From assembly GCA_010093815.1 (NCBI GenBank), contig ML996571.1: 64,000 nucleotides of DNA; one strand, 5' to 3'. The DNA comes from Pseudovirgaria hyperparasitica. Lineage: Eukaryota. Shown one piece after another: positions 5,055 through 45,482 of this stretch. Each line of letters starts with the position of its first letter. The first letter of the stretch is position 1. The notes under the pieces are model-generated. The model was not told the DNA's origin. It searched no databases and saw nothing but the letters and a program-made list of their open reading frames with translations. A program made the position numbers and the translations under genes.

Positions 5055-5689
5055 GAGAGCAGTGATACCCGGGATCTAGCTACCTCTAATCTTTCGCATA
5101 GTAATGAAGTAAACCATCCTGAGACCGCGTTCGGCGCTACGTTGATCGATTGCTCAGATATGGCAAGTGTCATAAACCAACTTAAGTTCAAGTATGTGCC
5201 TGATCCGGTAGGCAAAGCTTGTCAGTTCATTGTCGATAGTGAAGATACATACCAGTGGTAACGCCTCTATCCATTTATAGGCCCGTTCATAGTACCATTC
5301 TTGTCCCCGGCATTCACACGGTTTCTCCCTTCCACTCCAACACCCTCTCCTATTCATACAAATTTGTTGTTTTACCATAAAACTCCCTTTCCAGTGCCGC
5401 ATCTTGGTTCGTCGAGCTGCGATGATTCATACATGAGTTTTCTGTGCTCCAAATCAATGGTTACAATGCCCTTGTAAGTCAAGTCGGGGAAAATATGAGG
5501 TGATCAGTGTTGGTGCCTTTTAGAGACATAGTATGCTTCCTTCGACATGGGTTATGTCATCGAGGCAAGTAATCTCGAAATGAGATAGGAAAATATCCCA
5601 GAGCAAAGAGTGTTATGGAAGACTTGCTAGGCAGAATTCTCGAACCCGTACGAAAACCTCTACCTCAACCGCGAGCAAGACATGCTCTT

Positions 5690-7619
5690 TCACTGCGGCA
5701 TTGCAGATCCATCACCCCTTGGGTCACTGCCTGCACTCCAAACAAGCTGACCATCATCCTCGTGCCTCCTGATCAATTGCCCCCTCCCAAACAAACCCCG
5801 CGCATACCCCTTCACAACCTCAACCTTATGTCCCATCGCCCTCAGCTCCTGCACGACCTCATCCTTGATACCGTCTTCCAGATAGACCGTGCGATCCGCA
5901 ACATCTCCGGCCTCCGGCATCCCTGCCCCAATACAAAATCGCGGCGCGTCGAGCGCAGCCTGCGGATGCAGCCCAAATACGGTCATATTGAGCAATACCT
6001 GCACATGCCCCTGGGGCTGCATAAACCCGCCCATAACGCCATACACGCTATGCAGCGTATCGTCTTCCGCATTCGTGATCAACGCTGGGATAATCGTGTG
6101 ATACGGCCTCTTGTTCGGTGCGTACACATTTGGATGGTCGGCTGGCTGCAGCGCGAAATTTCCGGCGCGGTTCTGCAGGGTGAAGCCGCAGCCCGCGGGA
6201 ATGATGCCAGTACCGAATCCGGAGTAATTGCTGTTGATAAATGAGATGCCGTTACCGGCGGCGTCGGCTACGGAGAAGTAGACTGTGTCGGAGTGGTTGT
6301 GGGCAGGCGAGCCATGAGATATGAGTGCGGAGGCGGTGGTCGGGGAGAACAGTGATGCGCGCGAAGATAGGTATGATGGAGAGATGAGTTCGGCGGTGGG
6401 TACATTGACGACGTTGGGGTCGGTGACCCACCACCTAGCGTCGGCGAAGGCTATACGGAGGACTTCTATGAGGGTGTGGAGGTGTCTGCTTTGAATCAGT
6501 GGTGCTTTACGACGATTCAATGTAAGATCTGGGCCTACTTCGCGCTATTGTGGTCCTTTTCGGACCACTTCGTCACTTTGCCACATTTCTCGAGTTCTTG
6601 AAGCATACCGAGAGCCATCAGGGCGACGATGCCTTGGCCGTTAGGTGGGTGCTCCCAGACTCTGACAGGATCGATACCATGCCCTGAGTACACTAGTGAA
6701 ATGGCATCGACGTCTTCGCTTCCTGCTGTGGCATGGTCCTTCAAATCGTCCAAGGTCAAATGACCTCCGAGATCAGTAACGACTTTAACTAAGGCTTCAG
6801 CCACTTGGCCCTCATAGAACCCTTTTTTGCCATGCTTGGCAAGGAGGCGGTAAGTATTAGCCATGTTCGGGTTCTTCATGATCTCGCCTGCTTGTGGCGC
6901 ACGGCATCCATCTTTGGCGGATGGGTCTTTCTTCAACATTTCAGCGAAGTTGGGCGAGGCATTGCGAATTTTGTCCTCGCTGGCTAGCCACTGTAGAATC
7001 TTAGCAGGTTAGGGGCGACATTATGTTACACGCTCACGAAGGTTGATGACAGCTCCGAGACTGGGAAGCCTTTCTCGCCCATCTCAATCGCTGGCATGAG
7101 GATTTGTTCCAATGTAAGCTTCCCACTGCCGAATCGTTCCACGGTGTCAACCCAGCCAGCTGCTGCACCAGGAACAGTGACAGCATGAACGCTCTCGACA
7201 GGTATGCTGCCCGCCTTTCCGTCCGCAATACCAAGGTCATGCCGAACCTGTTCTAGTGATGTCTTGGAGCCTGAACGACCAGAACCATTCATAGCAGATA
7301 TCTTCTTCGTCTTGGCATTGTAGTAGAGACAGAAACAATCGCCACCAATGCCAGTAGAGCCGGGCTCGGTCATGTTCAAACCAGCAGCAACGGCCACAGC
7401 AGCGTCCTGTAATGTCGTCAATTATTGAAAGGAGGAGTGAGGAGTTGACATTACCGCAGCATTCCCGCCTTGTCTCAGAATCTCAAGCCCTGCCTGTGTA
7501 GCCAACGGCTGTGTGCTCGACACAATGCCTTTACTGCTATGTACGGTACTTCGTCGACTTGGAAACGTGATGAACTGCGGGTCCGATGCCGGATAGATAT
7601 GCTTAGCACTGAGAGGCAT
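5690..7619 (-). CDS. Gamma-glutamyltranspeptidase family protein (Ntn hydrolase), multi-exon
   Basis: Motifs GGNAA|DAAVA, EPGSTGIGGDCF, VTVPGAAAGW, PPNGQG, autocleavage SD-TVYF, LQNRAGNF, KRPYHTIIP, GVMGGFMQPQGH and SDPRGDG, spread over four ORF segments. Confidence 0.93.
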
Positions 7620-8085
7620 TGTAGCAGATTGTAAAAGTGCTTCTGGACGAATGGATTAATATCGAAAGTATTTTGTATAGATTCTACTCTGAAGTACAGC
7701 GAACATGACATTCATTAGATCATCGCGTCGTGGCTGAGCTTGCACTGCCGTTTGCCGACTGGTGGGGCACCTGTGGTATAGAGATGGCCCAATGGGCTGC
7801 AAGTTCAGATCGGAGTACTGTTGTACCGTTTCGCACCAGGAATGAATCCACGATATAGTGGAGCTATCACTCCTGGAGCTCATTCATATTGGAGGATAGA
7901 ACGGAAGAGTTCGGAGTATTAAACTATCATTAGGTCCATCGGTAGTTCATACTACTATAAGGTATGTCAGAAGAGAACAACCTGCGACAATAACTAAGCA
8001 TAAATTATTCGGAGCGCGCAAAACCTCGGAGCGGAGCAGAAGTCTGACTGCACGCGAAGATGCTACTGTTGACACTGCAACCTCA

Positions 8086-9441
8086 ATGTCCCACCGTACT
8101 ACATCCTGGATCTACACGAGATGTCTTTGCCGGGCCCTCAGATGGCATATACTGCGTTTCAATTTTCGTCAACAACATTATAGCATCGCCCGCACAGTAG
8201 ACCAGAAAGATGGCATCTCTCCCGTGCTCATATCGCGAGCACGCGAATTGGCGAAGGAACATTCGCGACTCGAAAGCGAGCTGTCTGACTCATTCGATTC
8301 GAGTACAGCTAAGAAGGCCGGTGAGTTGGGGCCAGTGGCCAGCGCATTGAACGAATGGGATAAAGCAAGAGATGTATGTACCACCCACAGTGATAAATGC
8401 ATCTTTGCTTACGAAACACAGTCAATAAATGAATTGCAAACCCTTATGAAAGACTCGACAACTGACGCTGAGCTCCGCGAGCTTGCAGCTGACGACATGG
8501 AGTCTGCAGTGCAGGACTTAAAACGAGCGTCGGCATCCCTCACACTCAGTCTCGTTCCAAAGCACCCCTTCGAACAATTACCATGCCTACTAGAAATACG
8601 ACCAGGGAATGGAGGTGATGAAGCGGCATTATTTGCGATGGATATGCTGCGCATGTACCAGGCATATTGCTCCGCTAATGGTCTGCGGACAACGCTCGTA
8701 AAGTTCGACACTGCAGAGGGCTCAGCTGATCCCAATGGATCAGCTTCGCCACTACAAGTGGCTATATTAGAAGTAACGGATGAAGGTGCCTATGGGCGGT
8801 TTCGCAGCGAAGCAGGCGTACACCGTGTACAGCGAGTTCCCGCGACCGAGACGAAAGGCCGGACACACACCAGCTCTGCAGCAGTTCTTGTTCTTCCATC
8901 ATTCCCTGATGCTACAAACGGTGGTAGTGCAAGCGATTTCGAAGATCCTACCAGCGATTACTACGTAGATCCAAGAGAGGTCCGTGTCGACATCATGCGG
9001 GCGCGAGGAGCTGGTGGACAGCACGTTAACACCACAGAGTCGGCTGTTCGTCTGGTGCACATACCGACCGGTATCACAGTTTCAATGCAAGACTATCGAT
9101 CCCAGCCGAAGAATAAGGAAGCTGCATGGAAGTTGATCAGGTCGAGAGTCGCACAAGGTAGGAGAGAGATTCGTGAGGCTGAGATCATGCAGACACGACG
9201 AGACATTGTCGGTGTGCGTAAGATGGGCCGCGAGAATAAGATTCGAACGTACAACTACGGACAACAGCGCGTGACAGATCATCGTAGCGGGCTTACCCTG
9301 CATGATCTTGACGATGTGATTGCGGGTGGGCAGGCACTCGAGAAGGTTATGGAGAGCGTCCGACAGTGGCTCGTAGATGGTGAAATACAGGCTCTAGCGG
9401 CGGAAAACCCCCCGAATGCGAAGGGCCAAAGCCATATATAG
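8086..9441 (+). CDS. MRF1: Mitochondrial peptide chain release factor 1
   Basis: GAGGQHVNTTESAVR (GGQ motif), GVHRVQRVPATE (PxT), IRTYNY..RVTDHR, and an Arg-rich N-terminal targeting peptide. Probable 48-nt intron at 8374-8421. Confidence 0.93.
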   Translation: MSHRTTSWIYTRCLCRALRWHILRFNFRQQHYSIARTVDQKDGISPVLISRARELAKEHSRLESELSDSFDSSTAKKAGELGPVASALNEWDKARDVCTTHSDKCIFAYETQSINELQTLMKDSTTDAELRELAADDMESAVQDLKRASASLTLSLVPKHPFEQLPCLLEIRPGNGGDEAALFAMDMLRMYQAYCSANGLRTTLVKFDTAEGSADPNGSASPLQVAILEVTDEGAYGRFRSEAGVHRVQRVPATETKGRTHTSSAAVLVLPSFPDATNGGSASDFEDPTSDYYVDPREVRVDIMRARGAGGQHVNTTESAVRLVHIPTGITVSMQDYRSQPKNKEAAWKLIRSRVAQGRREIREAEIMQTRRDIVGVRKMGRENKIRTYNYGQQRVTDHRSGLTLHDLDDVIAGGQALEKVMESVRQWLVDGEIQALAAENPPNAKGQSHI

Positions 9442-9985: not shown

Positions 9986-11596
9986 ATGATTGCCTTCTCT
10001 TTTCGCCGCTGGTTCATTGCTATGATCGCACTCACTGTAGTCTCTACTTTTTATTTTTTCGGATTCCAGAAAGTCTCTCTCGAAGATGTCCAGCGCCAAA
10101 TGCGCCACCCCAAGTATTCCACCGACCGCGAGACCGAATCCGCGCGTATGGACTACGCGTGGTATGATTATATGAAGAACCCACCATTGGGTCAGGTCAA
10201 TGCTGAACTGCCTGAGGGTGCCACACGAGGCACTCCTATGCCAACGCCGAACGCAGAACTGGAGTATAAAACGATTCTAGAGCAGGAGGAAGAGGAGGAG
10301 AAACAAGAGGAGCAGAATAAACTAAAGGTCTACCCAGCATGCCCGTGCCTGAGACTTGTCAACTGACAAATACCATAGATTCCGCCCGCGCAACCATTTC
10401 CCATCCCAGCTTTCAGCCCCGGTAATCCCACGCTACCATCCTCAGAATACTCTCGCATGCTTGTCCTGATGGCAAATAAGGACGAGATCAGCAATCTTGA
10501 ATGGATCCGAGAAGCTCTCACCGGCGAATCTCTTCTTGGCAGCATAACCTACATTCTCGATGACGACAAGTCCGCACACCCAGCCTCATACGGTAAATCG
10601 TCCGTCTACCTCGACTACATCATCAACCACTATAATTCTCTTCGCGAGATTACCCTCTTCATGCATGCCGAACAAGGGGCATGGCAACTCGACCGCCTCC
10701 TGAACAACTCTGCTCAATCCGTTATCTCCCTCCTGGACCACCACAAGGTCATTGAAGACGGCTTTGTACCTCTACGCTGTACGCTCTCCCCTGGCTGCCC
10801 CACAGAAGGAGACATCTTTCCCAACAAATCTGATCAATACGAGGACCATCCGCAAGATATTGTCATGAACTCTGTGTGGAAAGACTTCTTCGGCGCACAA
10901 CAGCCCCCAAAGCGCCTCGCCGAACCCGCATACGGTCAATATGCCCTCTCGCGCGAACGTATCCAAGCCATTCCGAAGAGCCAATATGAGTATCTCCTCA
11001 AGCGACTCGCTGCCAGCGCTTTTAGTGAAGAAGAACTGGACAACTTTTGGAGTCACGCGTGGCATTATCTATGGAGTGGTGAGGAAACGCGCTGTGCTGC
11101 TGAAGATGTGTGCTTCTGTGAGACCTATAGCATATGCTTCAAAGACACGACTGAGTACGAAATGCATGCGCGCGAGCTAACAGACTTACTAAGCAAAGAA
11201 ACATCTGTCCCCGCACTTGCTGGCAAGGAAGATATGTTGAATGAAATCAATGAGCTGAAGCAGAAATTGGACGTGCGCTTCGCTGAGGCACAAGCGCGTG
11301 GTGAGAAGAAAAAAGAGAATAGCATGAGTAGTAAAATCAGTGCAGAGTTGGAGATATTAGATAGTAAGTTCGATAAGACTGTAGATACAACAACAGATGG
11401 TGTTAAGGGGTTATGGGACGCGGTTAAAGAGTTTGCAGGCACGGAAGACGGAAAGAAGCTATTGGAAACAGGTAGCGATGAGGGGCATGTTGTTCTGGAG
11501 GAGAAGAAGCCTAAGCCCAAACAAGGCTACAGTCCTGGTGCGGAGAGAAGGAGAAGATCAAGGGCTTTCAATGGGGCGGTTGGTGATCTGATATAA
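9986..11596 (+). CDS. DUF3431-like type II membrane protein (divergent), with a charged C-terminal extension
   Basis: N-terminal transmembrane anchor and an intron at ~10328-10378. YLDYIINHYNSL...FMHA, LRC...PGCP, ALSRERI and WHYL...C..EDVCFCETY match the DUF3431 pattern as recalled. Confidence 0.72.
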
Positions 11597-11859
11597 TGTG
11601 AACGATCGGCAATGAGTTGAGCTTCGGTCTCCTCGGGTTACAGCTTGGGAAATAGCTTGCAGTACGGCTTGGAGCACAGTTAGTGCACTTTAGAAGGTAG
11701 TTGTACGTGTCAAAGCGTGAGTGTGATATTCTTTTTTGTACAGTTTGATCGATGGAGTTGTTAGGAGTTCGTAGTTCGTGAATCGCATAGCCCTGTTTAC
11801 GTTCTGCGTAGATATCATGTAATGCGAAACTTAGGCTTTTAGATGTAATTGGTGTACTA

Positions 11860-12125
11860 TAAACTACGCTGGAGAGGGTTATATAAGTATGAAAATAGAA
11901 AGTCTACTACTTAGTAGCTGTCTGACAGGTAGTCTCGATATACTTCTTAGCTATCTACCACTAAGACTACATCCGGATTATAATAGACTAGTATACTACT
12001 AGTTCTTAGTATTATATAATATGTAGTGTATATATCTATAAGAGAAATACTGCATTTACTAGCTCTACTAATATTAGGCTCGAGTACTTACTATAGTTAA
12101 AGTACATTAGTATAGGGATTTCCTA
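11860..12125. other. AT-rich, TpA-enriched tract resembling RIP-mutated repeat DNA
   Basis: Dense TA/TAG/CTA (e.g. TATAATAGACTAGTATACTACTAGTTCTTAGTATTATATAAT), few CpA/TpG dinucleotides and no ORFs. It lies at the left edge of the PKS block. Confidence 0.6.
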
Positions 12126-12693
12126 GGTCGTTAATTGCCTTGAACTGAATTATGGTCATTCAGCTCCAGGTCTAATTATGATGGATCTAAGCCTTTGTTA
12201 TCATTTGATACTTCAAGTCTAATATCCAAGCTAGATTTTAATGACAAATACACCTTTAGAAAGATCTACGGACTCGTGCGCATGAATTTTGATGAGGATG
12301 CTGTTTACTACTTGTATTATGTGCGAAGCTCTACCTCTGAGCCTGCAAAGGTTAATTTATTAAGCGCGTGCGAGACTGTGATCAATACGAGCAAGCATTT
12401 CAATTAGAGACTGATCGAATGACGTATCAGCTGATCGACACCACCTGGCCACGAAGTACTATCGTAGGCTAACGGGTGGTCGAGGGTGCGTCCGTAATGT
12501 GGAGAATTAATGTGGAGTGATACGATCTAGCACAGCCCTATCAAAAGAGCATTTCAGACCACTAGCGGCGGTTAAGTATGTTGAACATATGGCCTGATAT
12601 CTCAGCTTGCTCTATATCCGTAGACATCTTTGAAAGATACCTTTGTAATTTGCATACATGATCCAGAATTTATAGTTACATTGCAAACACAAT

Positions 12694-13821
12694 ATGGAAA
12701 GGAGCGACACTGAAGAGATGAATGCACAGGATCGGAAACGAAAGCAGAACAGAAAAGCGCAGAAGAGATATCGTAAGATTGTTCATTGATGGATCCGATG
12801 CGTAGCAAACTCATCAATTATGCAGGGCAAAAGATGAAGCATCGACTTGAAGAGCTGGAAAAGTGGAGAGAAGTGGCCGTGGCCACGACAGGCCAATACG
12901 TCGATCCTGTCTTTCACGAGGATACAAGCTTCATCTTTCCCGCTTCGCCGAGATTTGTCTGTAACCTGGAGATGCAAGCAGGTGGTTTGCCTCCTGTTGA
13001 TTATTCCAGTGCTTCTCTCTCCCCGGACCACCACCACCTATTTTCTACGAAGTCATTTGCTAGTACAGAAAACCCGCCGTTGAATGATCCCCAGAGAAAG
13101 CTGGCATGTCCCAGAGAGGACAATGGCATTCTTATGGTGGCTGACGATGAAAGTCATGAACATGCCCCGATCGTAGAAGATCCACAATCTCCTATCGTAG
13201 GTGAGGTCTTGGCTTGGTTTCATATATGTTAATACTAACTAATCTATGAGACAGAACTACAAACACTCGTCACCTGTAGCTGCATTATATGAGAGCACAA
13301 TGCGGCGTAATTCTGAGCCCTGTAAGGTCAATACGAGCACCAAGTCATGCTCTTGCATGCCGTCATCAGACCATGAAGTAGTGGAGAGATCGACGTCCAC
13401 TACTACTTGTGCTTCAGCAGGTGCCACTGCGCTTCATCTTGCGGTAGACATGGCTAGTACGCCCATTGTCACCGCATTATTGCGGAGACAAGTTGATGCA
13501 AATGTAAAGGATGCTCATGGACGAACCGCTCTACACCTCGCCGCTGGGAAACATGATGAAAGACTGACTCGTCTTCTATGTATAGCCTCGAGTTCTTGCA
13601 TAAACAGTCAGAACTATCTTGGCGATACTCCTCTGCATGTAGCAGTCGCCACTGGTGATCTCCAGAGCGTCAGAGTCCTGCTTTCTACCCCTGGAATTGT
13701 TGTCGATATCAAGAACAAGTCCGGGCGGACAGCTTTACACAATGCTGTGGTAGTGTCTAATGAAGAAACCATCGAAGCATTACTCGAGGCAGGGGCTAAT
13801 ATCCAGATTCATGTAGGCTAA
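12694..13821 (+). CDS. bZIP-basic-region + 4 ankyrin repeat (bANK, TOXE-like) transcription factor, 338 aa
   Basis: Exons 12694-12772, 12826-13196 and 13255-13821 join in frame (1017 nt). Basic region DRKRKQNRKAQKRYRQKMKHRLEELE. Ankyrin cores GATALHLAV, GRTALHLAA, GDTPLHVAV and GRTALHNAV. Confidence 0.88.
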
Positions 13822-13858
13822 GTTAGAAGTTACTAAGTAACAAACGTTGTCTCACCAC

Positions 13859-14400
13859 TTAAGTCATGTCAACGGAGTTGGCGACGCCCGGACTTTGCTC
13901 GAGGAAGGTCGAATCGATTCTACATAGTCCTTTGAGGGTATCACGGGGTACGATCGGCGGTAGAATTCCCTGCCAGAGATCAGTATTGTTTGATGCTTGC
14001 GCTCTCAGATCAGCCTCCTCCTCGTCTGAACAGGGCAGGGTACTCCAGCTATTGGCACTGGCCATTTGGACTTTATCTGAAGCAATAAGGGGTATTAGGT
14101 TAGCCAATGCTTGATGCTCTTGCATGCAAAAGCTAATGTGCAAGAGGCGTACTAAAGCAAGGTAGATGTACTTCAGGAGATCAGGATGATAGCGACAGTA
14201 TTATAGGCAGATAATAGAACATTCATACAGTTCAAAGTGAAGGAGGCGCTCCTCCTCCCTAAGAAAGCTGGCAAGTTATTGGTTAGGGCATCGGCCTATA
14301 CATCCAAGACTTCCGCTGAAATTTCGTAGACCGAGTTAGGGTTAGCAGTACGCTCGCCAAACTAGTATACCTGTCTCTGTATCTGTCACTCACATGTTGA
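13859..14400 (-). pseudogene. Possible decayed spliced gene of unknown function
   Basis: After a CTAAC...CAG acceptor (14268) the frame reads FLREEERLLHFELYECSIICL*YCRYHPDLLKYIYLALVRLLHISF... to 13859, with one TAA at 14201-14203. A GTGAGT donor lies upstream near 14393. Confidence 0.3.
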
Positions 14401-15185
14401 ATTACTTGCCCCTCAGGTCATCAATTCTACTGTTACCTTACTCCCCTATGGTAGATGCCTCAAGGTAATGCTTTATGATAAGTCCTCCATAAAGAGGTTA
14501 AGATAAGTTACGCCGCGAGTCTGCTAGCATGGGTCCTACGGACCAAAGTTAATGCAGTCAAGCCACGTTATAACGATACGAATACGACCACGATGAATGC
14601 ATCGTTATAACAGGAATGTCGTTGGAGCGGAATAACTTAATAGTAGAATCTCGATCTTATCTATAAGTATCAGACCAATATACCGAGAATATCACTATAA
14701 TGTATGTCGTAATAATCAGGTGTAGCTTTAGTAGTACGTTGTTTCCGATCACGTCAGGGTGTTGTTATATCTAGGTTGCTGCACAGTGATCTCATCAACA
14801 CATATACTTACTACTGTCATAGGATCTCACCTAATCTAATAGATCAGCTCACTTCGGCCAACGTAATAATATATCACTCGCCAATAGACTTGTTTAATTC
14901 GTTTGATAACAATGCTTTCACAATGCAGGTATTCTGCATAGCGTGTGATTGATCTAACTGACGTTTAATGTTTTTACCCCACTAGTCCGAACGCTCATGA
15001 AATCAAGGTATCGTTATCACAGCTTGCTGCATCGTCCTAGTGCAAACTAATGAGAACTCTAGTATATATGATCATGATATCACGTAAATATCTTGACTCA
15101 GTTCAAGGCTACTAACAGCTTGTGTAGAGGGACTCCTCGTTGGCAAACAATTAGTGCTAAGATAGAAACTTAGATATACGCCATA

Positions 15186-16156
15186 CTACTCCTTGAACTT
15201 TTCATGGAAAACATCCATAATAAACCGTATCTGTTCCTCTATGATTTCCGCAGACCGAGTATTAGTCAGAACATCGAAATGACCACTGTCTGGGGCCAAG
15301 ATCAAACGCTTAGGACATTTCAATTGTTCAAAATGCCGCTTTTGGCTTTCAACTGGGCATACTCGATCAAACTCTGGAACAATGAACATGGTAGGTGTCT
15401 GATCAAGATGCTTCCATGTGGGCCAAGGTGTCCACATCATCAGCTGATGGTAACTTTGAATGGTAGTCTTGTTGGGCCATCCCAGGGCTAGATCAAGGTG
15501 TGCCTGTGCAAACCGCGCAGCTTTGCCTACTTCCATCTCATTTCCAAAGGAGCAACCCGCCGGGTTGATACCATCGGTGTTTACTAGAGGGATCATGAAC
15601 GGTTCGTTGCCATTTATTTGGGACTCGCGATCCTGGAAGCATTTTTCGAGTACTTTGAGGAGCCTCTCCTCTGAGAACTGATAACCAGCTGCTGGACAAA
15701 TCGCTATGACGAATTTCGCACGTCTATCGAACGAAGCCGCACATAGAGTAGTTGCGCCTCCGAGCGACATGCCCCAGACACCAATGAAATTAGGGTCCAC
15801 TATGGGCAGGGACGCTAGATACGTTATGGCATCTGATATATCTTCGACTTGCTTGTATGGTTGGATGTGATTCCTCGGTTGTCCGTCACTTTCGCCAGTA
15901 GTTCGAGGGTCGTAAAGCAATGCCGTGATTCCTGCATCTTGAAATGCTCGAGCCAATTGTGTCTGGCCTAGCATCTCCTTAACACAGTTGAACTAGAGAT
16001 CTATTAGATCCACCCCAAACGAAAGTGGTGGGAAAATGATGCACTTACGCCTGTAGAGAGGACAACTCCTCCGCCCTTTTGTTGCGCCTCAAATAGGATC
16101 CCACGAAGCATGAGACCATCGATCGTTAGAAACTCTACCTTCTTTTCAGTTGCCAT
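15186..16156 (-). CDS. Trans-acting alpha/beta-hydrolase (polyketide thioesterase/transferase, Fma-AT/Bref-TH/DcsB-like), 304 aa
   Basis: Exons 16156-16049 and 15992-15186. Sequence MATEKKVEFLTIDGLMLRG...G|FNCVKEM, YDPRTTGESDGQPRN, nucleophile elbow GMSLGG, PEFD and a C-terminal GHF. Divergent from the PKS. Confidence 0.88.
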
Positions 16157-16291
16157 TGTGTTAAGTTCGAATAGACTAAGCAAGTTGTTGAGGGTCGAAT
16201 GTTAGCAGGATATCAACTTTCGAGTACTTTTAGAATGATCACGACACCTTAGACAAGATCTTTAGTTTCTCCGGGTTAGGTTTGTGAGAGT

Positions 16292-16375
16292 AGCTCACGT
16301 GAATATACGCTATCAAGTGAGCTCGTACCTGCATTAATGCCGTCATACAGCACTCTCACGTCAGCTGCGTGAGTT
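16292..16375. promoter_or_regulatory. Cluster of CTCACG motifs in the hydrolase/PKS bidirectional promoter
   Basis: CTCACG at 16294-16299 and 16355-16360, and inverted (CGTGAG) at 16368-16373. The last two form the imperfect palindrome CTCACG-TCAGCTG-CGTGAG. Confidence 0.45.
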
Positions 16376-16635
16376 GATTTTAGCTGTACGATCACAGATC
16401 TGGTTCACACAGACACAGATGGTACACTATATGATACAAAACGTGTATGAGAACTATACACAGACTAGATTTCATTGACTGCTCTCTGTCTGTGCCAGCT
16501 TCTGCCAACTCCTACTCCTCCTTTTCATGTATACGTCAATTGCACTCTCAACAACATTCTTGAAAGCCTAGCAGGAATCTGTCAACTCTGGTGCAGATCT
16601 CAGCGCATCGACGAGTTCGAAATCGATTTGAAAAG

Positions 16636-19600
16636 ATGTCATGGTTGATGTCAAACGGTGATGCTGGGCTTAGCTCGACTGTCACTCTTACATCTGAGAA
16701 TCCCATTAAAGTAGACGAACAGTGTGGGACAGCACTACCAATAGCTATTGTTGGATATGCTTGCCGTCTTCCCGGAAGCTGCCATACCCCTCGGGACTTC
16801 TGGCGCTTTCTTGAGAGAGGAGAAATTGCGAGCCTGGAGCCACCCAAATCAAGATTTCGACTTGACACTCACAATGACGGTACGAGGAGACACGGAACCA
16901 TGGCTACTCCTGGCGGTATGTTTCTGGATATTGATGGCGCCGATCTTGATGCCCAGTTCTTCAAGCTTCTGCAAAGCGATGCTATTAGTATGGATCCACA
17001 GCAGCGACAACTTCTAGAGGTGACCTACGAAGCGATGGAGAATTCCGGCGTGACCCTGGAAGCTATACGCCAACAGCCAATTGGCTGTTTCATGGCCTCA
17101 TATACAGGTGATTATGGGGACATACAGGCTCGGGACCCCGAAGATCGAGCACCTCACGCGCTACTCGGTATTGGTCGTGCTATGCTCAGCAACCGTATAA
17201 GTCATTTTCTGGACATCTCAGGCCCCAGTATGACGATAGATACCGCTTGTTCCGGCAGTCTTACCTGTGTGGACGTTGCTTGTCAGTATTTGAGATCTGG
17301 CCAGATAGAAGGCGCCATTGTCGGGGGGTGTAATCTATATCTTAACCCAGATCATGTCATTGGAACCCCACCATTGAGTGGGTTTTCATCTGGGACTGGG
17401 AGATGTCATACATTTGATATCAAAGCAGACGGCTACGTGAAAGCAGAAGGTGCTACTGTCATAATTTTGAAGCGTTTGGATGTCGCCATTAAAGACAGAG
17501 ACCCGATACGCGGTATTATCCGCGGAACGGCCTCGGGAAGTGATGGCTGGACAGTTGGTATCTCCAGCCCGAACTCATTAGCTCAGGCAGCAACAATTCG
17601 GAAGGCAGATGAAAATGCTCAGATCACGAACTTCAACGCGACAAGTTATCTGGAATGCCACGGAACAGGAACAAAGGCAGGTGACGTCATTGAGCTCACT
17701 GGAATTGGTTCAGTCTTCTCTCAACGTGATACACCTCTACACATTGGATCAAGCAAGGCAAATGTAGGCCACTCTGAGGCCTCTGCAGGCTTGACTGGAA
17801 TGATCAAGACCTTAATGGCAATTGAGCATGGAGTCATCCCTGGCAACCCTACCTTCATTGACCCCAATCCCGCAATTGATTTTCAAGCCCTTGGCGTGAA
17901 ACCATCTAGGTTCTCCATCAGATGGCCCGATGTTCCGTTCCGACGAGCCGGCATCAATTCGTTCGGGTATGGAGGCTCAAACGCGCATGTAATACTGGAT
18001 GAGGCATCTCCAGGACTTATCACATCCCACGTTCGCTCCTTTCTTATTGATGAGGATAATCAATTCGAGGATGTGAGACCGGCCTCTCGGCCATACATTA
18101 TTTTTGTTTCCGCCAACGACCAAGATTCTGCGCATAGTATCTGCTCCGCGCTGAGAAAGCATCTCTCAAACCCTGCTGTACGTGTTGAGTTACGAGATAT
18201 CGCTTACACACTCTCGGCTCGACGCAGTAAACATTACTATAGAGGGTATGCAATCGCCAAAAACCACATGTTTAAGGTTCAGGACTTCAGATTCGCCACG
18301 GCTTTACCGTCGCCCCCTCGCATTGGACTCGTCTTTACAGGGCAAGGTGCACAATGGAGCGAGATGGGCAAATCTCTCATCGAAACCTTTCCCGTGGCCA
18401 AGAAGTGTATACATGAGCTTGATGGTGTCCTCAGGACGCTGCCACACGGCCCGAGCTGGACTCTTTTGGGTAAGTATTTTTGGAACATTAAACGGTATTT
18501 CCTAGTTACTGACGAATGGGCGCTAGAGGAGTTGACAGAACCTCGTACGGCAGAGCATATGAGTCTTCCAGAATACTCGCAACCTTTGGTCACAGCGTTA
18601 CAACTTGCGCTCCTAGTCGTGCTAGAATCTTCTGGTGTCACTTATCAAGTGGTCGTAGGCCACTCGAGTGGTGAAATAGCGGCAGCTGTAGCAAGTGGTA
18701 ATCTGACAAGATCACAAGCAATCAAGATTGCCTTCTACCGAGGGCTAGTGGCCTCGAATAGTGAGTCGAATCAAGAAATCGGGATGCTTGCTGTGGGTAT
18801 GAGCTCCAAGCAAGCTCTCCAATATCTTCTGTCAACCAAACACGTCGAGATTGCTTGCTTTAACAGCCCATCGAGTGTCACACTCTCTGGAGACAAAAGA
18901 GAACTGGAAGATCTAGAGCGTCAGATAAAAACGGATGGATATTTTGCACGAATGCTAGTTGTCAAAGCTGCCTACCACTCGAGCTACATGGCACAACCAG
19001 CGACCAAGTATCAAATATTGATGGAGAAACACTGCGACTGGACTGGCTCCTCCTACAATACAGCAACGATGTTCTCTACTGTTACCGGTATGCCCATCTC
19101 GGACGAGCTCCGAAGGCCAAGCTACTGGGCCGACAACATGAGATCACCAGTTCTTTTCGACCAGGCAGCTCATATGGCCCTGCAGGAGACACCAGATATC
19201 CTGGTGGAGATAGGCCCAAGTGATGCTCTTGCTGGTCCATGTAAGCAGATCATGAAGTCCCTCAATCAGTCTATCCTATACTTCTCCTCATGGAAGAGGG
19301 GCGCTTTGGCCCTTACGACACTATGTGATCTTCTTGGGAACCTGGCCATACGTGGATGTAGCGTGAATCTTACCAAATTTAATGCCGACTCTGAAAGGAC
19401 TAAACCGCGTGTTGTGGTTGACCTTCCTAATTATGCTTGGAATCACACTACGAAATATTGGCACGAGAATGATTCTAGCAAGGACTGGAGATTCCGAAAA
19501 TTCCTCCATCATGATATCTTGGGCAGCAAAGTACTTGGAACGCCTTGGATGCAGCCAGTGTGGAGAAAGGTTATCAGATTGAAAGAATTACCTTGGCTGG

Positions 19601-22600
19601 AAGACCACAAGGTTAGTTTTGACATCTCTCGATATATATACCATCTACTGACTCTCAACTTAGATTGCCAATAACGTTGTGTTTCCAGCGGCTGGCTATA
19701 TCGCGATGGCTACTGAAGCCATGTTTCAATTGGGGAAGGCTACGGGCGTACTAGCAGACTCAACACAGATACGACAAGCGACATATCTATTGCGGAACAT
19801 CACAATTGAAAGAGCACTCATTCTTGATGTCCAAGGAGCACCGGCAAAAGTTACATTATCCTTGTCCCCTCTCCAAAGCAATAAAGAGCATTGGTACAAG
19901 CTTCGAATCTCAACTGTTGTTGATGATTTCCTCTTTGACCACTGCAAAGGCTTGATACGTATAATCGGGGATGTCACTAAGAGAGGCAGTGACGAGGAAA
20001 CAAGTCCTCTGGAGCATGCTGAGCCGGCTACAGTGTGGTATAAAGCTTTACAAAACAAAGGCTTTCAATATGGACCATTGTTTCAGACACAGCGTCACGT
20101 GGAGTCCAGAGAGGGCATACCACGAAGTCGGTCCACGATATCATTGGTACCTCCTGAATCTGATTTTGGTCAATCTGAGTATATCCTCCATCCAGCTTCT
20201 ATCGATGGATGTCTGCAGTTAGTGGCTCCGGCTCTATGGCATGGAGTGAAGAGTTTCACTAGCCCAGCCATTATACCCTCCAAAGTAGACGAAATCCTCA
20301 TACCTGCACAGGCTACCAGATCGAACACAGGTATAGCTGTGGCCGACACCAAATACATGGGGGTTGGTAGCCAAAGCGATCCAAGAGCACACAGGTCTAA
20401 TGTATCATTATATGATTCTGAGGGAGGTAGTCTCCTCTTTCGCATTACTGGATTAGAGGTACAAGCTCACTCTTCAACGGACACAACATCCTCCCAGCCT
20501 ATACAGCAATACTGTCGGTCTACGTGGCAACCAGATGTAACAACATTCTCTCGGGAGCAGCTTCGCAGTGTTTTGATCCGAAACAAATCGGACAATTCAC
20601 AAATATGTAAACCAACGTGGAGAACTATATACACATTGCTCGACCTTTTCGTGTTCCGGAATCCTGATCTTCAAGTCTTAGAGGTAGATACAAAAGGTGA
20701 ACACAACAGCCTTTGGATTGAACGTCAAGAAACTCAGCTCAACGTTCACTCGCAAAGCTGTTCTGTCACCTTGTCGGTGCCAGGGGATGCGTGGACCCGA
20801 ACGAGCAGTATCTACGAAAAATATCCTTCGGTTTCAGTGATTACAAGCGCAAACCCGGTCTCACCACTGATGTTACAGAAACAGTTTGATGTTATCATTC
20901 TTCGTTCGCCGCTCTCCACCGTAGATGCAACTTTTTTCTCAGATGAATGGGGTAAAATGCTGCGTGAGAACGGCATTTTCCTCCAAGTTGGGCAAATAGA
21001 CGACTCGAATCGCCCTCCTCATCACATTACAAATGGACATTCCTCTTTCGCGTCTTACAAAAACATGGAACTCAACTTTGAATCGATACATACTGATAGC
21101 AAAGTACAGAAGGAGTGCGCTCTTAAAATCGCTTTCAGAAATTCTCGAGCGCCACTGACAGACCGCAATATACACATCCTACAGCTTGCCCAATCGCAAG
21201 CAATAGTCGAGCCCGTAGCTGAAGCTCTGAAAAATCTGGGATGGAATATTAGTAGTTCACCGGCATCTGTCGAGTCATTGGAACCCAACAGCACAGTTCT
21301 CATACTCGATGAAATATTGAACAACCTCTTATTTGAGGTCAATGACGTACAATGGACTATTTTACAGCAACTGGTGTCCATGAATTGCAAAATACTCTGG
21401 GTAACGAGAAAAGCACAAATGAATGTCAAAAACCCATCAGCAGCATTAATTTGGGGCCTTTCTCGATCAATTAGACAAGAGAACCCTGAAAATGTGCTGA
21501 TGACCTTGGACGTTGAGTCAGTTTCTGATGAAACTACAGCCAGGGCAATCAGTGAGGTACTCCACAGGGTAAAGGTCTCAACGGGATCTATGGGTGCCGA
21601 CTGTGAGTTCGTGGAGAAAGACGGTATGCTGCATATTGAGAGGATAGTACAAGATGATGTCTTGGCGTCGTTCCAGAAGTGCCGTGAGGCTGGGATGGAA
21701 CTGACTGACCAGTCATTGTTTGACATTGACGCTTACGTCCGTCTCATCAGTAGTCGTGTTGGTACACTTGACAGTCTTTCTTGGGAGGAAGTGACACAAT
21801 GGCAAACACCACTCGCTGACAATGATGTGGAAGTTGACGTTCATGCTGTTGGACTAAACTTCAAAGTAAGTCATCATGTTCATCAAATCATTATCTAACC
21901 ACTTGTAGGATATCGCAATTGCCATGGGCATTGTCGCAGGAGATCAACGAATGCTTGGTCTTGAGGGCGCTGGTGTCATAAAAAAGATCGGCAAAGTAGT
22001 GTCAAATCTGCACGTCGGGCAAAGAGTTCTCCTTAACAAGAAAGGTACCCTGGCGAACAAATTGCGATGTGGTTCTTTCGGGGAAGCCTATCCCATACCG
22101 GACTGGCTGTCATTTGAGGCTGCAGCTTGCTGCAATGTTGTTTACAGCACGGTCATATACAGTCTTGTCGACCTTGCAGGGCTTCAGAGGGGACAGTCCG
22201 TCTTGATTCACTCAGCCGCAGGTGGCATCGGCCTAGCAGCTATCTCGTTTTGTAAGTATATTGGTGCGAACATGTACTGCACTGTTGGTAACAACGAGAA
22301 ACGGGCGTACCTGACAAAGCATCACGGGATCCCTGAGGACCATATATTTTCTTCTCGTTCGACTGACTTCACGAAAAGTCTCATGAAGATCACCAATTAC
22401 CGCGGGGTAGATTGTATACTAAACTCACTTTCCGGTGAGCTACTACATGAATCTTGGCGCTGCATTGCCACCTCAGGAACCTTCGTTGAGATTGGAAAAC
22501 GAGACATTTTGGACAAGAACCATTTGAGCATGGAGCCTTTTGGGCGGAATGCCTCATATCGCGCAGTGGATATGTCGAATGATTGCTTTAGACCAGAGAC

Positions 22601-24098
22601 GAGGCTCAGGTAGGGGAAATACAGCTATTTCGGACATGGCTGATGGGTTGCTACAGATTGATGACACAATGGCTCTCGCTTTTAGAGCAAGGTCTCATCG
22701 AAATACCGCCCATAACAAAGAGATTTGGATTCAACGACGTCCATGCCGCCTTCCGGCACATGAGAAGCGGAAATAACATTGGAAAGACTGTCTTAACACG
22801 CAATGAATCATTTGGAGATGTTCATGTACCGGTAAACTTTCCTGAACTCTTATGTTGTTTAGCTTGTTATCTAACAATTTCCAGATCCGGCCCGCTGTTC
22901 CAAGACTACCTCTCAACCCTGATGCCGCCTATCTCATAGTCGGAGGCCTGAAGGGCGTATGTGGTAGTCTATCGCTCTACCTTGCACGGGAGGGAGCCAA
23001 AAATCTTATAATTCTCTCCCGCACCAACTGCACAGACCAAGTCTCGCAGCGTGTAGTTGCAAATCTGAGATCTCTTAGAACGAACATTATACTAGTGAGA
23101 GGTGACGTTACGGTAAAGAAGGACGTAGTACGGGCCATCCGTTCGTCGCCTCTCCCTGTGGCAGGGGTAGTTCAAGGTGCCATGGTGCTTCAGGTAAGCG
23201 ATGCCATGTTTACGCATAATGGCTATGAAGGCTTACCCTCTCATAGGACAAGGTATATAGTACCATGACTAGTCGGGACTTTCATACCGCGGTGAGGCCC
23301 AAAGTTCAAGGATCGTGGAACATCCACGAAGCGCTACTTGAAACTGCATGTGTCGTCGATTTTTTCACCATGCTTTCGAGCATGACCGGCGTTTTTGGGG
23401 CGCCAGGGCAAGCCAACTATAGTGCCGCAAACGTATTCCTAGATGCGTTTGCCGCATATAGGACTGGTCTCGGTCTTGCAGCACACTCAATTGATCTGGG
23501 AATAATTGAAGGCGTCGGCACTTTCAACACAGAAGAGCGGGAAACCCAGTACCGCCGGTTTCTCTACCAAGGCTGGAGGTGCCTTGACCAGCGTGCGCTG
23601 TGCGACGTCCTCGCGCTTTCAATTTTCCAGCAAAGCAAGACTCCCATAAATGTGAATAGTGGGTCTCAGCTTATTACAGGGATTCCTATTCCCATCCCGG
23701 ATACTTTGCCAGCGCGGAACCATACACGCTTTAATGCCCTCACAGTAAAATTATCACAATCATTTCACAGTGCGGCAGTCAAGTCGGAAGACTCGCCTCT
23801 AGCGACACTTCGAGCTACGATAAATTCCCCCACTGCCTCGAACAATCGTACACTTCTTCTGGAATTGATTGTAACGCTTGCAAACGGAAAATTCAAGGAA
23901 TGTTTGGGACTTGAGGAGGCCCTCGATCCTGTGCGACCTCTTGCTTCGTATGGTATAGACTCCCTTGTCGCTGTAGAATTCTCCAACTGGAGTAAGATGG
24001 AATTGGGGATTGAGGTCACAACGGTGGAGATAATCGCGGCTCAAACTCTGACGTCGCTTTCGGAGACGATGTTAAAGAAGGCATTAGGGAAAGTATAG
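16636..24098 (+). CDS. Highly reducing iterative type I polyketide synthase, KS-AT-DH-pseudoMT-ER-KR-ACP
   Basis: KS: DTACS, HGTGT, GHSE. AT: GQGAQW, GHSSG, AYHS. DH: WLEDHK..VVFP, HPASIDGCLQ. ER: LIHSAAGGIG. KR: YLIVGG, VLQD, QANYSAAN. ACP: GIDSL. Six introns near 18470-18526, 19612-19663, 21865-21908, 22610-22657, 22832-22884 and 23194-23246. Confidence 0.95.
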
Positions 24099-24221
24099 TA
24101 TATTTTCTCTTATAGGGAGAGAACGTTGTATGGCTACAGAGTATACCACTCTACAGCATATTCCATCGATATTTTACAATCCTGCCCAAACATCGTCTGC
24201 ATATAGATGGGACTATTACTT

Positions 24222-25525
24222 TTACTGACGCCAATTAGCCATCCTAGAAATATCAAAGTCTTCGGCACTATTACGGGGTCTCATCCCTTGCTTCCTTTCC
24301 TTCTCCGTCTTATCTATCCCGAATTGCTCACGTAAGACCTTACGATCGCATCCTTTTATTGCAATCGCTACCTTCACGCGTCCACCCCAACTCATCATCA
24401 TGCCGTTCAGCGCCGAAGCAGCACGCTGTGCCTCCGAGGCAGAACCTAGATCCACCCAAGTATAGTAATGATTTTCCGGTGTACGGCGCGCGGTAGCCGA
24501 CGGCGAGATGATTTTGCTGATTGCTTGAACCGTAAATCCTCTAAACAGATCGCGTATTTCCAGATTCACGGCATCCTGGCGTGGCATTCGTGGGAGGCCA
24601 CCGACATAGACTCTGCGACCTTCGTCGACGGGCGCTATCCAGTGGACGGCTGCATCGGTACGTGCCCAGCGATCGAATGCGTAAGGACTCCCACTAGCAC
24701 TATCGACGTCTGCAGGAAGTGCGGTGAGATTCGAGTTTGATCTGGAATAGTCGTAACATGGGGTATCTGTGGGACCGTAGCGGGGGCGCTTGTTCTGCGC
24801 AGTGTTGCGGACGGACTCATTGGTCGAGGGAGACTTTTGATCATGTCCTGCTGGGATTCGCGTCGGAATCTCTTGCGGACGCCATTGATTGTATATGCGC
24901 GTCGGTGGTCTACGATCATTGGGATTACTGCGCTTTGGCTTGACAGTGTTGACCTTTATGTACCGGTTGAGGATACTCTCTGAGGAGAGTATGGTGAGGG
25001 CATGGGTAAGACTTCATTCGAGTCTGGTAAGTAAGAGGTTCTTAAGAAGTTGACTGGTATATCATCTAGCATAACAAGCTAGAGCAGGATTGATGAGCGA
25101 GACGAGACTTTCATGCCAACAACAGAAGGCATACTGATGTAATGTCATAGATCATGCTGTATAATGAAACGAATCGCGAGATTACTCAATACTCACTCTT
25201 CCGAAGTCTCCATATCAACGAAGCAGTAGCCTGGATTCCGACCTGTAAATGGATCCGTTGAGATGTCAATGTTTCTACTGCAAATTTAGTGAGCATCTAA
25301 ACATCCAGATAGGTGCCTCGGAAGACCTTACTAAGGCAGCTCGTGCCTTCCCAACAGTTCTTGGACATGCGTAACTTGGGCTCTATAAGGCATATTGCCA
25401 ATATACAATCGTCTTGAAAGATCAGGGCCATCATCTTCAAACCCAGCTGATTCATTCGAAGATGCCATGATGTGCTCAATTGAAGGTGGCCCCAGCAGGT
25501 GCGAATGCACATCAGCGTCGGTCAT
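24222..25525 (-). CDS. RNA-binding protein with two RRM domains
   Basis: RRM1: RRLYIGNMPY...DPFTGRNPGYCFVD. Linker PYAFDRWARTDA. RRM2: RRVYVGGLP...YTWVDL...AQRAASALNG. Two introns; the second is ~185 nt and its acceptor is uncertain. Confidence 0.85.
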
Positions 25526-28299
25526 AGTGTTGATCAAACAGAGCGCCGTGATGTCGGGAAGGAGAATGGGAAAGGAGGAGAACAGAGGCACAGAAGTTGC
25601 GACCTGTGAGTTCTTTTCTACCTGCAGATTCTGGTCATGCACAACAAACAAACACCGCCTCCCTTGCTAGAAAGCCGGAATCCCAGCGACGTTTGATGAT
25701 TGCCCTTGCTAGGCACACCGCAAACGGTGGAAGGGCTCGAAAGGCGGCAAGCAGTATAAGCATTTGGACAGAGGTGCGAAAGAAGGATAACTTTCGTTGC
25801 TACTAAGCCTAGGTAAGCTCTCTATATATACTATACCGAGATCAGTTATATAGACTAGTAATATTTTTCAGTTGTATGAGACAGGTCACTAAATATGAGT
25901 AGTATGACAAGCAGATTAGTGCATCATTCTATGCCGTTAAGGCTGCATTCAGGTGCAACGTAGAAATACGCTGTGTTGGATCTGTGTTGTCGGCAAGACG
26001 AGAGCGATGATAAGAGAACGTCCGATACACACGGAGGTGTTGATGCTATATACCAGAGATGGATGGCAGGAAGACGACGTGCCGTTATTGGAAGGCGAAG
26101 TGCAATTCCTATCATGTCATGTCATCCGACGCCATCTCGTCTTTGGTGTATCACGTGGATGCCCCGATTATAGGATCTTCATGGAGGAGCGCAGTACAGC
26201 ATCTGGATATGAGGTTTGAGAAGTATAGCTTCAATTGAGTGAATTCTCCAGCTAGCAAGAGTTGTCAAGCAGGCTGAGAGGCGAGAACCCCGAAGTATTA
26301 GATGAAACATACACGTGACCCGGGATAAACTGTACATCCCGTGACTTGAAAGAAAAATACATTACAACCACACCCGGTCGCAGCTATGAGTTCTTGAAAC
26401 GGCACAAGGTGTTACAACTCGGATTCTGGCTGGGTATGAGATCTAGACTGCGCCTCACCGCTTCCAATAATTTGGCTTGGCAACCGTAGCGGATGTACTA
26501 CGTAACCGCCTACACCTACTCTACCTTTACAGCGCAACTGGGTACTAGTACAATGTGGCTCCACGTGTAATAGCAGTCTCGTTTCCTCCATGTCTCTGGC
26601 TTCATATCACTGAGATGTTGTTATAACTGCGTCCAATCCAGCCGCGTTGTTTCGGATCGTCTCATAATTGAATATGCGGCCATCTAAAGTATCTGCCGCA
26701 CGCATTTTTTTTCAGTTTATGCCTCCTCGAGAGCGCATTCAGTCAGTGGTCGACGATATTTGTATCGCTTACTATACTTGATGACGGCAAACGGCATCCC
26801 CGAACCTGGGATCGCATCCCAGCTCGACACGAGGTAACATGGCAGACTCAATTACTTTATATCTCGAATTCTCAGCAGCGTACGGCGGTAAAGGATAGGA
26901 TCATGACCGCGCTTATGTTCTGCTGCGGACTCGCAGTATCCTCAAAAAGTCAGAAGGTTGAGGAGGGTTTCCATTGTCAGGGTCTGATATAGGACGCCCG
27001 TCACCATGCACATGATCCGTCGTACCCTGCACGGTGGATGCGCCGCTGCTTACGGTACACGATGCGAAACATGGGCTCTTCCCAAAGTACATCCTTACGA
27101 TGTCACGATACCGGCCAGAGCAAGAACTCACAAAAATAGTGTTCGTGAGATTCGAGTTAGCTCCTGCTAGCATGTCATCCTGCTTATGGTTGTCCACACA
27201 ACACAGCTTCCTTTATGGCTTACAATTTTTGGCAATTACGAACCTAGGATCCTCAGACGCAAGGTTGTATTGGCACGAAATTCATCTGCATATTCCCAAA
27301 GCAGTCGTATTACCTCGTGATCAACGCTATACATCTCGCACTGCATTAGTGTATGGGTGGTTTTCATTGGTCTAGAAGGAAGAAACATGGCGACAACCTG
27401 TATTCGTGCTGTGAAAGCTGAACGCAAACGGGAATGGGAGTCTGAAACGCGACTATCAATACTCCGATGTTGAGGACATGGTAAGAGGCTGTGGGCGCGA
27501 AGTATTTTTATCAGAACGAGTAAGCAGCTTCTCCTTGCTTCACCCTTACGAAAGTCATCATAGCCGATTGCTGTACACCATACCGCTGATCTACACAGCA
27601 CGCACCCCTGACCGTATAGACGCCTCGAGCGAGGGTGATCATTCGCCTCCGTTTATTCCAGATACCACGAGCAAGAGATGCAAATAATCTAGAGCACACA
27701 CTTCAGGGTCATGGCTGACAGTGCCAAGGCCGTCAGATATCGAATTTGCATAACGACAGACAACATCATAATCACTTCACTTCAGCTATAATCCTGTAAT
27801 CGGAATGGTACTTAAGTTGTAGTACAACTGGTCTTCGCTGCATCCTTTACCAGGCTCTTGAGAGGTTGAGCAGACTGACTACGCTACGCTCCGTTATGCG
27901 CAGCTACCTGTAGCCAATAACGAACAAAACCATGTCGCGCGAGCAACACCGCATCAGAATGACACCTCAGCCCTATGTGTGAATGATCCTGGCTACGCTG
28001 TTGTAATGCCCTCGGCGGATAACGCCCTGAAAATAGCCTGGAACACAATTACTCTCTATTCTAGCATTTTCTTTCGGTTGCGGCTTACTGTGATCACTGT
28101 CCGCGTGCAGCATGGGTCCAACGATGGCCTGAATCCAAGGATAAAGATAGACGACTCCTTCGGAAGTAGGCATTAAATGCGAGCAACAAAGTTGCATTTT
28201 CCTTTCTGTGGGCTACAATCGATCTTGTGACGGCGAAGAGCTTTAACTTATCATTACCAGTTGTATATATTCATATTTCGTGCCTTATCGTTCTCCAGC

Positions 28300-45092: not shown

Positions 45093-45481
45093 ATCCAGTG
45101 ATAATTGCACCTATGTGTAGCACTTTCCCTCGCTGCTTGTGCAATTTACGAGGAGTGATATTTCTGGCCATTGGAGTTGCGATATAAACGACATTAAGAG
45201 TGCACAACGAAACCATCAATGGCTTTATCAAGGGGCTGTGATGGATCGATACGCGTTTGTACTAGTCCAAGGCATTGGCTTTTGTCGATGCCGCTAAAGT
45301 CCACGTTTGATGAAGGCGGTATTTAGCGAGGGCGCTAGGGTCTCAACCAACATATAGGGCTTACGAAGCCTTTGTCACCAGGGAGATGTGTCGTGTACCA
45401 GGGGCTGATATCTGTATGAAGACTAATTAGTATTAAAGCGGGTCACCTTCATTAGAACTTCAACGCGCAGAGTGCAAACAG

Positions 45482-45482
<1 letters not shown>

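Follow-up and report, generated by a model that had tools for sequence, protein, structure and literature searches.

What a fungus might make with one polyketide synthase and one stand-alone hydrolase, and whether a regulatory gene lying next to them is their switch, are the questions raised by a locus of Pseudovirgaria hyperparasitica (assembly GCA_010093815.1), a dothideomycete that has been described as a mycoparasite (PMC7082219). The locus occupies positions 12694-24098 of a 64,000-nucleotide stretch of contig ML996571.1, which was analysed as a whole and is referred to here as the window. Three intact genes were found there, coding for a regulator (+ strand), an alpha/beta-hydrolase (- strand) and a polyketide synthase of the highly reducing type (HR-PKS, + strand). 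The best overall explanation, to which we assign a probability of about 0.72, is a small transcribed locus in which the HR-PKS works with a release hydrolase, next to an activator of the bANK type (basic region plus ankyrin repeats).

Splice sites were read from the sequence and then checked against the contigs of two public runs from one sample, in which 0.80 and 0.61 of the words sampled from 12600-22500 are present. The kind of run is not on record; because the contigs over 11500-25800 skip every predicted intron, with GT..AG ends (CT..AC for minus-strand genes), the runs were taken to be transcript assemblies. A preliminary description, made from the DNA sequence alone, had placed three intact genes at these positions, and all three turned out to be spliced and transcribed in this sample, being covered by spliced contigs in both runs. 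The regulator transcript extends over 12614..14217 (+; contig X1 record 1) with GT..AG joints 12772>12826 and 13196>13255, and its coding sequence of 338 amino acids (12694-13821; exons 12694-12772, 12826-13196 and 13255-13821) has both introns skipped in the contigs. A database protein labelled ‘ankyrin’ (P0241, 338 amino acids) is equal to it in length and matches exon 3 at 100%. The hydrolase (304 amino acids; 15186..16156, -) is encoded by exons 16156-16049, read by eye from the sequence, and 15992-15186, the latter showing 100% identity over 100% of the query to database protein P0001 (304 amino acids); the intron between them (16048-15993) is seen in the contigs as the CT..AC joint 15992>16049. 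The PKS gene (16636..24098, +) consists of exons 16636-18469, 18527-19611, 19664-21865, 21909-22609, 22657-22831, 22885-23193 and 23247-24098. Its five predicted introns were confirmed in the contigs together with a sixth of 57 nt (18470-18526), all six with GT..AG ends, and the RNA-supported protein is about 2385 amino acids long from the first ATG. The database model P0121 (2377 amino acids; 98% identity over exon 1) differs only at the start codon and at intron 1: it starts at the second Met, four codons later (16636-16647), and excises 69 nt (18470-18537 region), so that the deposited protein is probably four residues short internally. The three database records (P0001, P0121 and P0241) come from P. 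hyperparasitica itself and share one contig of 1,665,737 bp. The start codons of the hydrolase and PKS genes lie head-to-head at a measured distance of 479 bp, in agreement with the roughly 480 bp first estimated.

Pfam searches with P0121 and with the exons of the window revealed the order KS-AT-DH-psiKR-ER-KR-ACP on one polypeptide. The KS domain (16738..17847, +; P0121 residues 31-400) was recognised by ketoacyl-synt (E 1.7e-65) and Ketoacyl-synt_C, with its Cys in DTACSGS and His in HGTGT and NVGHSE. It is followed on the same strand by the AT domain (18331..19260; residues 562-848; Acyl_transf_1, E 2.8e-41; GHSSG) and the DH domain (19510..20473; residues 932-1235; PKS_DH_N and PS-DH), the latter with His in DHKIANNVVFP and Asp in IDGCLQ. 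An sdrA-like structural NAD-binding region (residues 1510-1626; NAD-bd_HRPKS_sdrA, E 1.5e-9) represents the structural psi-KR at 21296..21646 (+). The ER domain (21818..22795, +; residues 1684-1979; ADH_N, ADH_zinc_N and ADH_zinc_N_2) keeps the HSAAGGIG nucleotide-binding motif, the KR domain (22924..23510, +; residues 2005-2182; KR, E 4.8e-52) has its catalytic Tyr in NYSAAN, and the ACP (23895..24065, +; residues 2311-2372 of 2377; PP-binding and ACP_SdgA_C) carries GIDSL. When aligned with 15 relatives, the catalytic motifs were intact throughout (KS Cys/His/His, AT Ser, DH His/Asp, ER and KR nucleotide motifs, KR Tyr, ACP Ser). Pfam gave no Methyltransf family even at E<=1, with no C-methyltransferase between DH and psi-KR, and no release domain of the TE, R or cAT kind, as only about 10 residues extend past the ACP; in both respects the enzyme is as the preliminary description had proposed. 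By its domain content this is a complete HR-PKS with an unmethylated reduced chain as predicted product and, since no domain follows the ACP, it should need a partner for release.

The divergent hydrolase is the candidate for this partner. It matched the solved chain 7d78 (PDB 7d78/7d79, ‘DltD domain-containing protein’) with an E value of 4.2e-60, residues 1-259 of the 268-residue query aligning with residues 60-317 of the chain; a hand count gave 104 identical residues in 259 columns, about 40%. The second match was to GrgF (PDB 6lzh), with an E value of 3.5e-47. All three belong to the same full-length alpha/beta-hydrolase family with a Ser-Asp-His triad, which is consistent with the stand-alone PKS-release family first suggested for the window protein; an alignment of 39 sequences showed no variation at its Ser112 (in G-M-S-L-G), Asp245 and His274. 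We take 7d78 to be DcsB, the lactone-forming enzyme of the decarestrictine pathway. Like the solved PKS-partner hydrolases, the window protein is encoded beside an HR-PKS that has no release domain of its own, but it is only about 40% identical to 7d78, and neither GrgF-type chain fusion nor medium-ring lactonisation can be read from its sequence. When 1.84 billion representatives were searched exhaustively with HMMER, the hydrolase had 52 matches at E<=1e-30, rising to 1025 at E<=1e-10 and to 4866 at E<=0.001, and a quick tree placed the protein inside a well-supported clade of 25 rows together with sequences from Xylariales, Lentithecium and lichen fungi.

The relatives are distant, and the pairing of the two genes recurs among them. 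The best hydrolase relative, an unnamed ENA protein, is 57% identical, those from named fungi are 47-51% identical, and the best KS-AT relatives reach 54-56%. Metagenome relatives showed 37-53% identity for the hydrolase (full-length matches) and 41-60% for the KS, with two fragments (L024 and L025) at 63-65% over about 70-77 residues of the hydrolase. Among the named fungi, 15 hydrolase relatives lie on a contig that agrees in species and length with that of a PKS relative, the locus tags being adjacent for five of these 15 (Xylaria curta, X. longipes, X. grammica, Cudoniella acicularis and Pyrenula ochraceoflavens); in Diaporthe ilicicola the best hydrolase and PKS matches fall on different contigs. 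A scan of metagenomes gave 28 loci with a hydrolase relative, and an HR-PKS lies beside it in 18 of them, 16 times head-to-head (opposite strand, PKS N-terminus towards the hydrolase). Some of these loci are near-duplicates (L002/L003/L013, L014/L015 and probably L019/L020), so that the number of independent cases is about a dozen. Most of the ten loci lacking a PKS are not long enough to reveal one: eight have under about 1.3 kb of sequence upstream of the hydrolase; of the other two, L012 has 2.3 kb upstream and no PKS, and L027 is a weak partial relative only. A different cluster design was seen at L021, where the hydrolase relative stands between two HR-PKS genes (1-8226 and 12188-19938), one ending in a carnitine-acyltransferase domain and the other having a C-methyltransferase.

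On the strength of the structure matches and the recurring pair, the locus can be placed, by sequence, in the published class of HR-PKS with stand-alone thioesterase, of which hundreds of putative clusters have been reported by homology and whose members make fungal macrolides (PMC11519919). BrefPKS/BrefTH (brefeldin) and SchPKS/SchR1 (Sch-642305), compared here by description, likewise combine an HR-PKS without a release domain with a thiohydrolase; BrefTH is reported to off-load the chain and to control its length, and SchR1 to be essential (PMC9055631). The two-gene core is also that of the ApmlA/ApmlB-type macrolide clusters found in the genome mining of Morishita and Asai. The block is thus a rather divergent example of a cluster type that is known and has already been mined heavily; its only mildly unexpected feature is the bANK neighbour.

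Based on family membership, intact catalytic residues and the conserved pairing, we propose that the iterative HR-PKS would join malonyl units into an unmethylated chain, reduced in part or in full, which it could not release by itself. The divergent Ser-Asp-His hydrolase would take this chain from the ACP onto Ser112, and release would follow by attack of water, giving an acid, or of an internal hydroxyl, giving a macrolactone. By analogy with BrefTH, the hydrolase would probably also help to set chain length. The bANK protein would be the activator of the pathway, acting on the 479-bp promoter through CTCACGT(G/C)A boxes.

The architecture of the regulator agrees with the bANK assignment made at the outset. 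A putative basic DNA-binding region of bZIP/Yap type covers residues 13-27 (12730..12830, +), with N-x7-R at residues 19-27, and four C-terminal ankyrin repeats (13417..13818, +) were detected by Pfam (Ank, E 2e-22 in four stretches; Ank_2, E 1e-21). No leucine zipper follows the basic region: only Leu37 is in heptad register, and the +7 and +14 positions are Ala and Tyr. This architecture has been defined for TOXE, Aps2 and Apf2 (PMC4109984, PMC3729494). TOXE (HC-toxin) and Aps2/Apf2 (apicidins) share the four C-terminal ankyrin repeats and the lack of a leucine zipper with the window protein, whose putative basic region would correspond to their bZIP-type one, a likeness of architecture, and their genes, like the one described here, stand in or beside a secondary-metabolite cluster. 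Those known examples, however, govern cyclic-peptide clusters of non-ribosomal peptide synthetases, whereas the window regulator adjoins a PKS and a hydrolase and is shorter at 338 amino acids. A homologue search with exon 3, set towards longer proteins, found, besides the self-match P0241, only long unrelated ankyrin-array proteins and is thus uninformative on bANK relatives. With the whole regulator, an atlas search returned as nearest clusters Ascomycota ankyrin proteins of 310-406 amino acids at scores of 0.97-0.98, a lead only; with residues 1-60 it gave no feature match, only generic single-helix structural matches. A literature search for bANK factors in polyketide clusters found peptide-cluster examples only, which is weak evidence that no others exist, given its poor coverage of subscription journals. 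The calbistrin regulator CalC, considered as a possible bANK factor of a PKS cluster, was rejected, being described as a Zn2Cys6 protein (PMC6299560).

The divergent promoter (16157..16635, 479 bp) contains two CTCACGT(G/C)A boxes, at 16292-16302 and 16353-16363, with inverted partners at 16313-16323 and 16368-16373, respectively. The Api-box and Tox-box consensus sequences were taken from PMC4109984 and PMC3729494, and an exact Api-box, TGACGTGA, was found at 16356-16363, inside the second of these boxes and in the middle of the promoter, at a distance of 200 bp to the start codon of the hydrolase and of 273 bp to that of the PKS; about 0.02 sites would be expected in 479 bp. Sixty bases away lies a copy with one mismatch, TCACGTGA (16295-16302), and both copies stand in inverted-repeat settings, namely AGCTCACGTGA/TCAAGTGAGCT and CTCACG-N7-CGTGAG around CAGCTG. 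One copy of the Tox-box with one mismatch is also present within the promoter. The Api-box is reported to be required for Apf2-dependent expression (PMC4109984), and in the APF cluster it likewise lies in a bidirectional promoter (PMC4109984, PMC3729494); the copy described here fits the published single box serving a bidirectional promoter. We treat it as a lead towards a link with the regulator and not as proof; it was picked out post hoc after two motifs had been tried. A second exact Api-box, TGACGTGA at 14749..14756 (-), lies between the 3′ ends of the regulator and hydrolase genes. About 250 bp downstream of it, in the gap free of open reading frames (ORFs) between these 3′ ends, run X1 alone showed a plus-strand GT..AG joint, 15005>15061 (55 skipped, depth 3.3), which may belong to a non-coding or antisense transcript heading towards the hydrolase gene. 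Another joint seen in X1 only, a minus-strand CT..AC joint at 16968-17029 within the first PKS exon (60 skipped, depth 4.8, side 30), points to an antisense RNA or to a hydrolase transcript that begins far upstream.

Several observations weigh against the proposed scheme. With regard to the enzymes, identity to the nearest relatives is no higher than 57% for the hydrolase and 56% for KS-AT, and not one of them has an experimental name; the terminal branch of the hydrolase in the quick tree is four times as long as the median (0.82 vs 0.21), although the triad is intact; and the chemistry of the family varies between hydrolysis, lactonisation, acyl transfer and chain fusion, among which sequence alone does not discriminate here. 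The depth of the contigs gives no ranking of expression, and the two runs amount to a single sample. For the regulator, the Pfam match to bZIP_1 (residues 13-39 to profile positions 7-33; E 0.021, 15.3 bits) falls under the 27.6 cut-off. The Api-box is not enriched in the 64 kb: four copies were counted where 2.46 would be expected, and four were reached in 22 of 100 shuffles. The Tox-box, ATCTCNCGNA, is no commoner in the window than chance predicts (57 vs 58 expected). A bANK gene was found in only one of nine non-redundant long relative loci (L005), where the divergent promoter has no exact Api-box and the hydrolase falls in the other main clade of the quick tree.

These last results bear on the view that the regulator is a mere neighbour, being a general Yap-related factor, as Bap1-type bANK proteins were at first proposed to be, or else a factor with some other target, and that the PKS pair is under global regulators. 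The adjacency could indeed be due to chance, because one locus in nine has such a gene and the hydrolase there belongs to a different clade. The absence of a bANK gene from eight of the nine long loci and the motif counts at chance level across the window are both in keeping with this view, as is the position of the regulator gene, which is separated from the hydrolase gene by a 1.36-kb gap and is divergent with neither biosynthetic gene. Nor was CTCACGT enriched window-wide (6 vs 7.6 expected), and the six Api-box copies in 292 kb of relative loci include none in a hydrolase-PKS promoter. On the other hand, an exact Api-box is central in the shared promoter with its near-copy 60 bp off, each in an inverted-repeat setting, all three genes are transcribed together in one sample, and the bANK factors studied so far are cluster-specific (PMC4109984, PMC3729494). 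The L005 case itself argues for a tie to such pathways: its bANK gene (16793-18257, -) lies within a locus of HR-PKS, hydrolase, MFS and two cytochrome P450 genes on a 124-kb metagenome contig and encodes the same type of basic region and ankyrin repeats (Pfam Ank, E 1.6e-24), with an intron one codon off the one described here and in the same phase. An ankyrin ORF at another relative locus (L018) was rejected as a bANK gene, its repeats being scattered and its basic region absent. On balance we regard the mere-neighbour view as unlikely, albeit the strongest of the alternatives, and control of the PKS-hydrolase pair by the regulator as plausible, with chances that are about even or a little higher.

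Whether the cluster is as small as it looks was addressed through the ORFs of the block and of the relative loci. A scan of ORFs of at least 100 amino acids found, outside alternative frames of the three genes, a single further one in the block (13859-14200, -), which has no Pfam match and falls within the regulator transcript 12614-14217; with no further gene-like ORF that has a Pfam match, the block contains no P450, other tailoring enzyme or transporter, as the preliminary description had stated. The alternative is that the cluster is not minimal and that unlinked or distant genes tailor the product into an oxidised or decorated macrolide. The relatives lend it some weight, for they usually carry tailoring genes: among ORFs of at least 140 amino acids outside the pair (96 ORFs over 11 loci, of which nine non-redundant long loci were counted), P450s are present in five of the nine long loci (L003, L005, L009, L011 and L014), accompanied by genes for SDR, BBE-type oxidase, MFS or FSH1 proteins. 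Homologues of GPI-ethanolamine-phosphate-transferase (GPI-EPT; PIGO_PIGG, Sulfatase) adjoin hydrolase relatives at L012 (4721-6301) and L022 (636-2092), matching the GPI-EPT cluster type that a 2020 paper on macrolide genome mining, cited by PMC11519919, names in its title. Several P450s are found with further tailoring genes in the brefeldin and Sch-642305 clusters, and the window pair, compared with the ApmlA/ApmlB type, lacks an adjoining GPI-EPT homologue, SDR, BBE oxidase, P450 or acetyltransferase. Candidates for such a role do exist in the window: the region 41283-49394 codes for an alpha/beta-hydrolase (41283-42167, -), for a FAD/BBE-type oxidase (45820-47234, +) and for an MFS transporter (48459-49394, -). 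They are, however, 17-25 kb from the PKS, behind galactose-oxidase-like, DUF7732 and AMPK-CBM genes, and may form a separate small metabolic island. Moreover, at three of the nine long loci (L008, L018 and L026) the available flank is free of the usual tailoring families; tailoring-free pairs therefore exist elsewhere and the window block is not unique in its bareness. We consider a larger, dispersed pathway improbable, and slightly more so than a regulator unconnected with the pair. In the main reading, the two enzymes would make up the whole pathway.

Least convincing is the idea that the hydrolase is an Fma-AT-like acyltransferase that would transfer the ACP-bound polyketide to an alcohol produced by unlinked genes, the locus then being half a pathway, which we judge very unlikely: fold and triad are identical for both chemistries, and some hydrolase relatives are named ‘Polyketide transferase’ (P0081) and some PKS relatives ‘Fumagillin dodecapentaenoate synthase’ (P0184), but these names were transferred by similarity, the two proteins are more distant at 43% and 51% identity, the closest solved relative is 7d78, taken here for a lactone-forming enzyme, and no terpene cyclase or acceptor-making gene was found among ORFs of at least 110 amino acids in the 64-kb window.

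The borders of the block were examined as well. Upstream it is delimited by an AT-rich tract at 11500..12250 with a dinucleotide bias like that of repeat-induced point mutation (RIP), as had been suggested for the start of the block. The GC content there is 0.34-0.43, TpA/ApT 1.44-1.50 and (CpA+TpG)/(ApC+GpT) 0.66-0.79, against whole-window values of 0.49, 0.75 and 1.22, and the composite RIP index is 0.71-0.78 against -0.47. Just upstream of this tract, a DUF3431 gene (10379-11593, +) adjoins the deepest contig bin (11500-11976), which covers its 3′ end and the sequence downstream; the contig depth of this bin is 109 and 43, compared with 1-25 elsewhere in 11500-25800, depth being a rough guide. 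Downstream, a convergent minus-strand gene at 24222..25666 (ORFs 24222-25013 and 25331-25666, with a CT..AC joint near 25275-25332) forms the 3′ border. The tail-to-tail arrangement reported for it earlier was found, but its designation as an RNA-recognition-motif (RRM) gene was not confirmed, as Pfam gave neither RRM nor any other family at E<=0.01 and RNP-like motifs were visible by eye only. The nearest flanking genes with a family are thus the DUF3431 gene upstream and, beyond the convergent gene, a galactose-oxidase-like gene downstream; SPX-EXS, gamma-glutamyltranspeptidase and mitochondrial release factor genes lie further upstream. The literature on Pseudovirgaria yielded information on its lifestyle and the mention of a swainsonine cluster.

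As for the product, the search for a high-identity match to a characterised cluster found none in the databases used (MIBiG not among them), and the product cannot be named, because no relative exceeds 57% identity for the hydrolase or 56% for KS-AT. The furthest-reaching proposal would be that the bANK protein switches on a polyketide pathway through its Api-box-like CTCACGT(G/C)A boxes, and that the bare pair of this rust hyperparasite makes an undescribed macrolactone or acid for mycoparasitism; we offer it tentatively and think it rather doubtful as a whole.

The locus leaves the understanding of HR-PKS/thioesterase clusters as such unchanged. The enzyme pair has nevertheless proved itself as a source of macrolides and related lactones in fungi, and the product is probably new chemistry from a little-studied mycoparasite, since this copy of the pair is far from all other sequences (57% identity or less). 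With two biosynthetic genes, transcript-confirmed introns and a candidate activator adjacent, it is an easy target for heterologous expression. If the regulator is indeed the switch of the pathway, the bANK class would extend from peptide toxins to polyketides and the locus would provide a second test of the Api-box.

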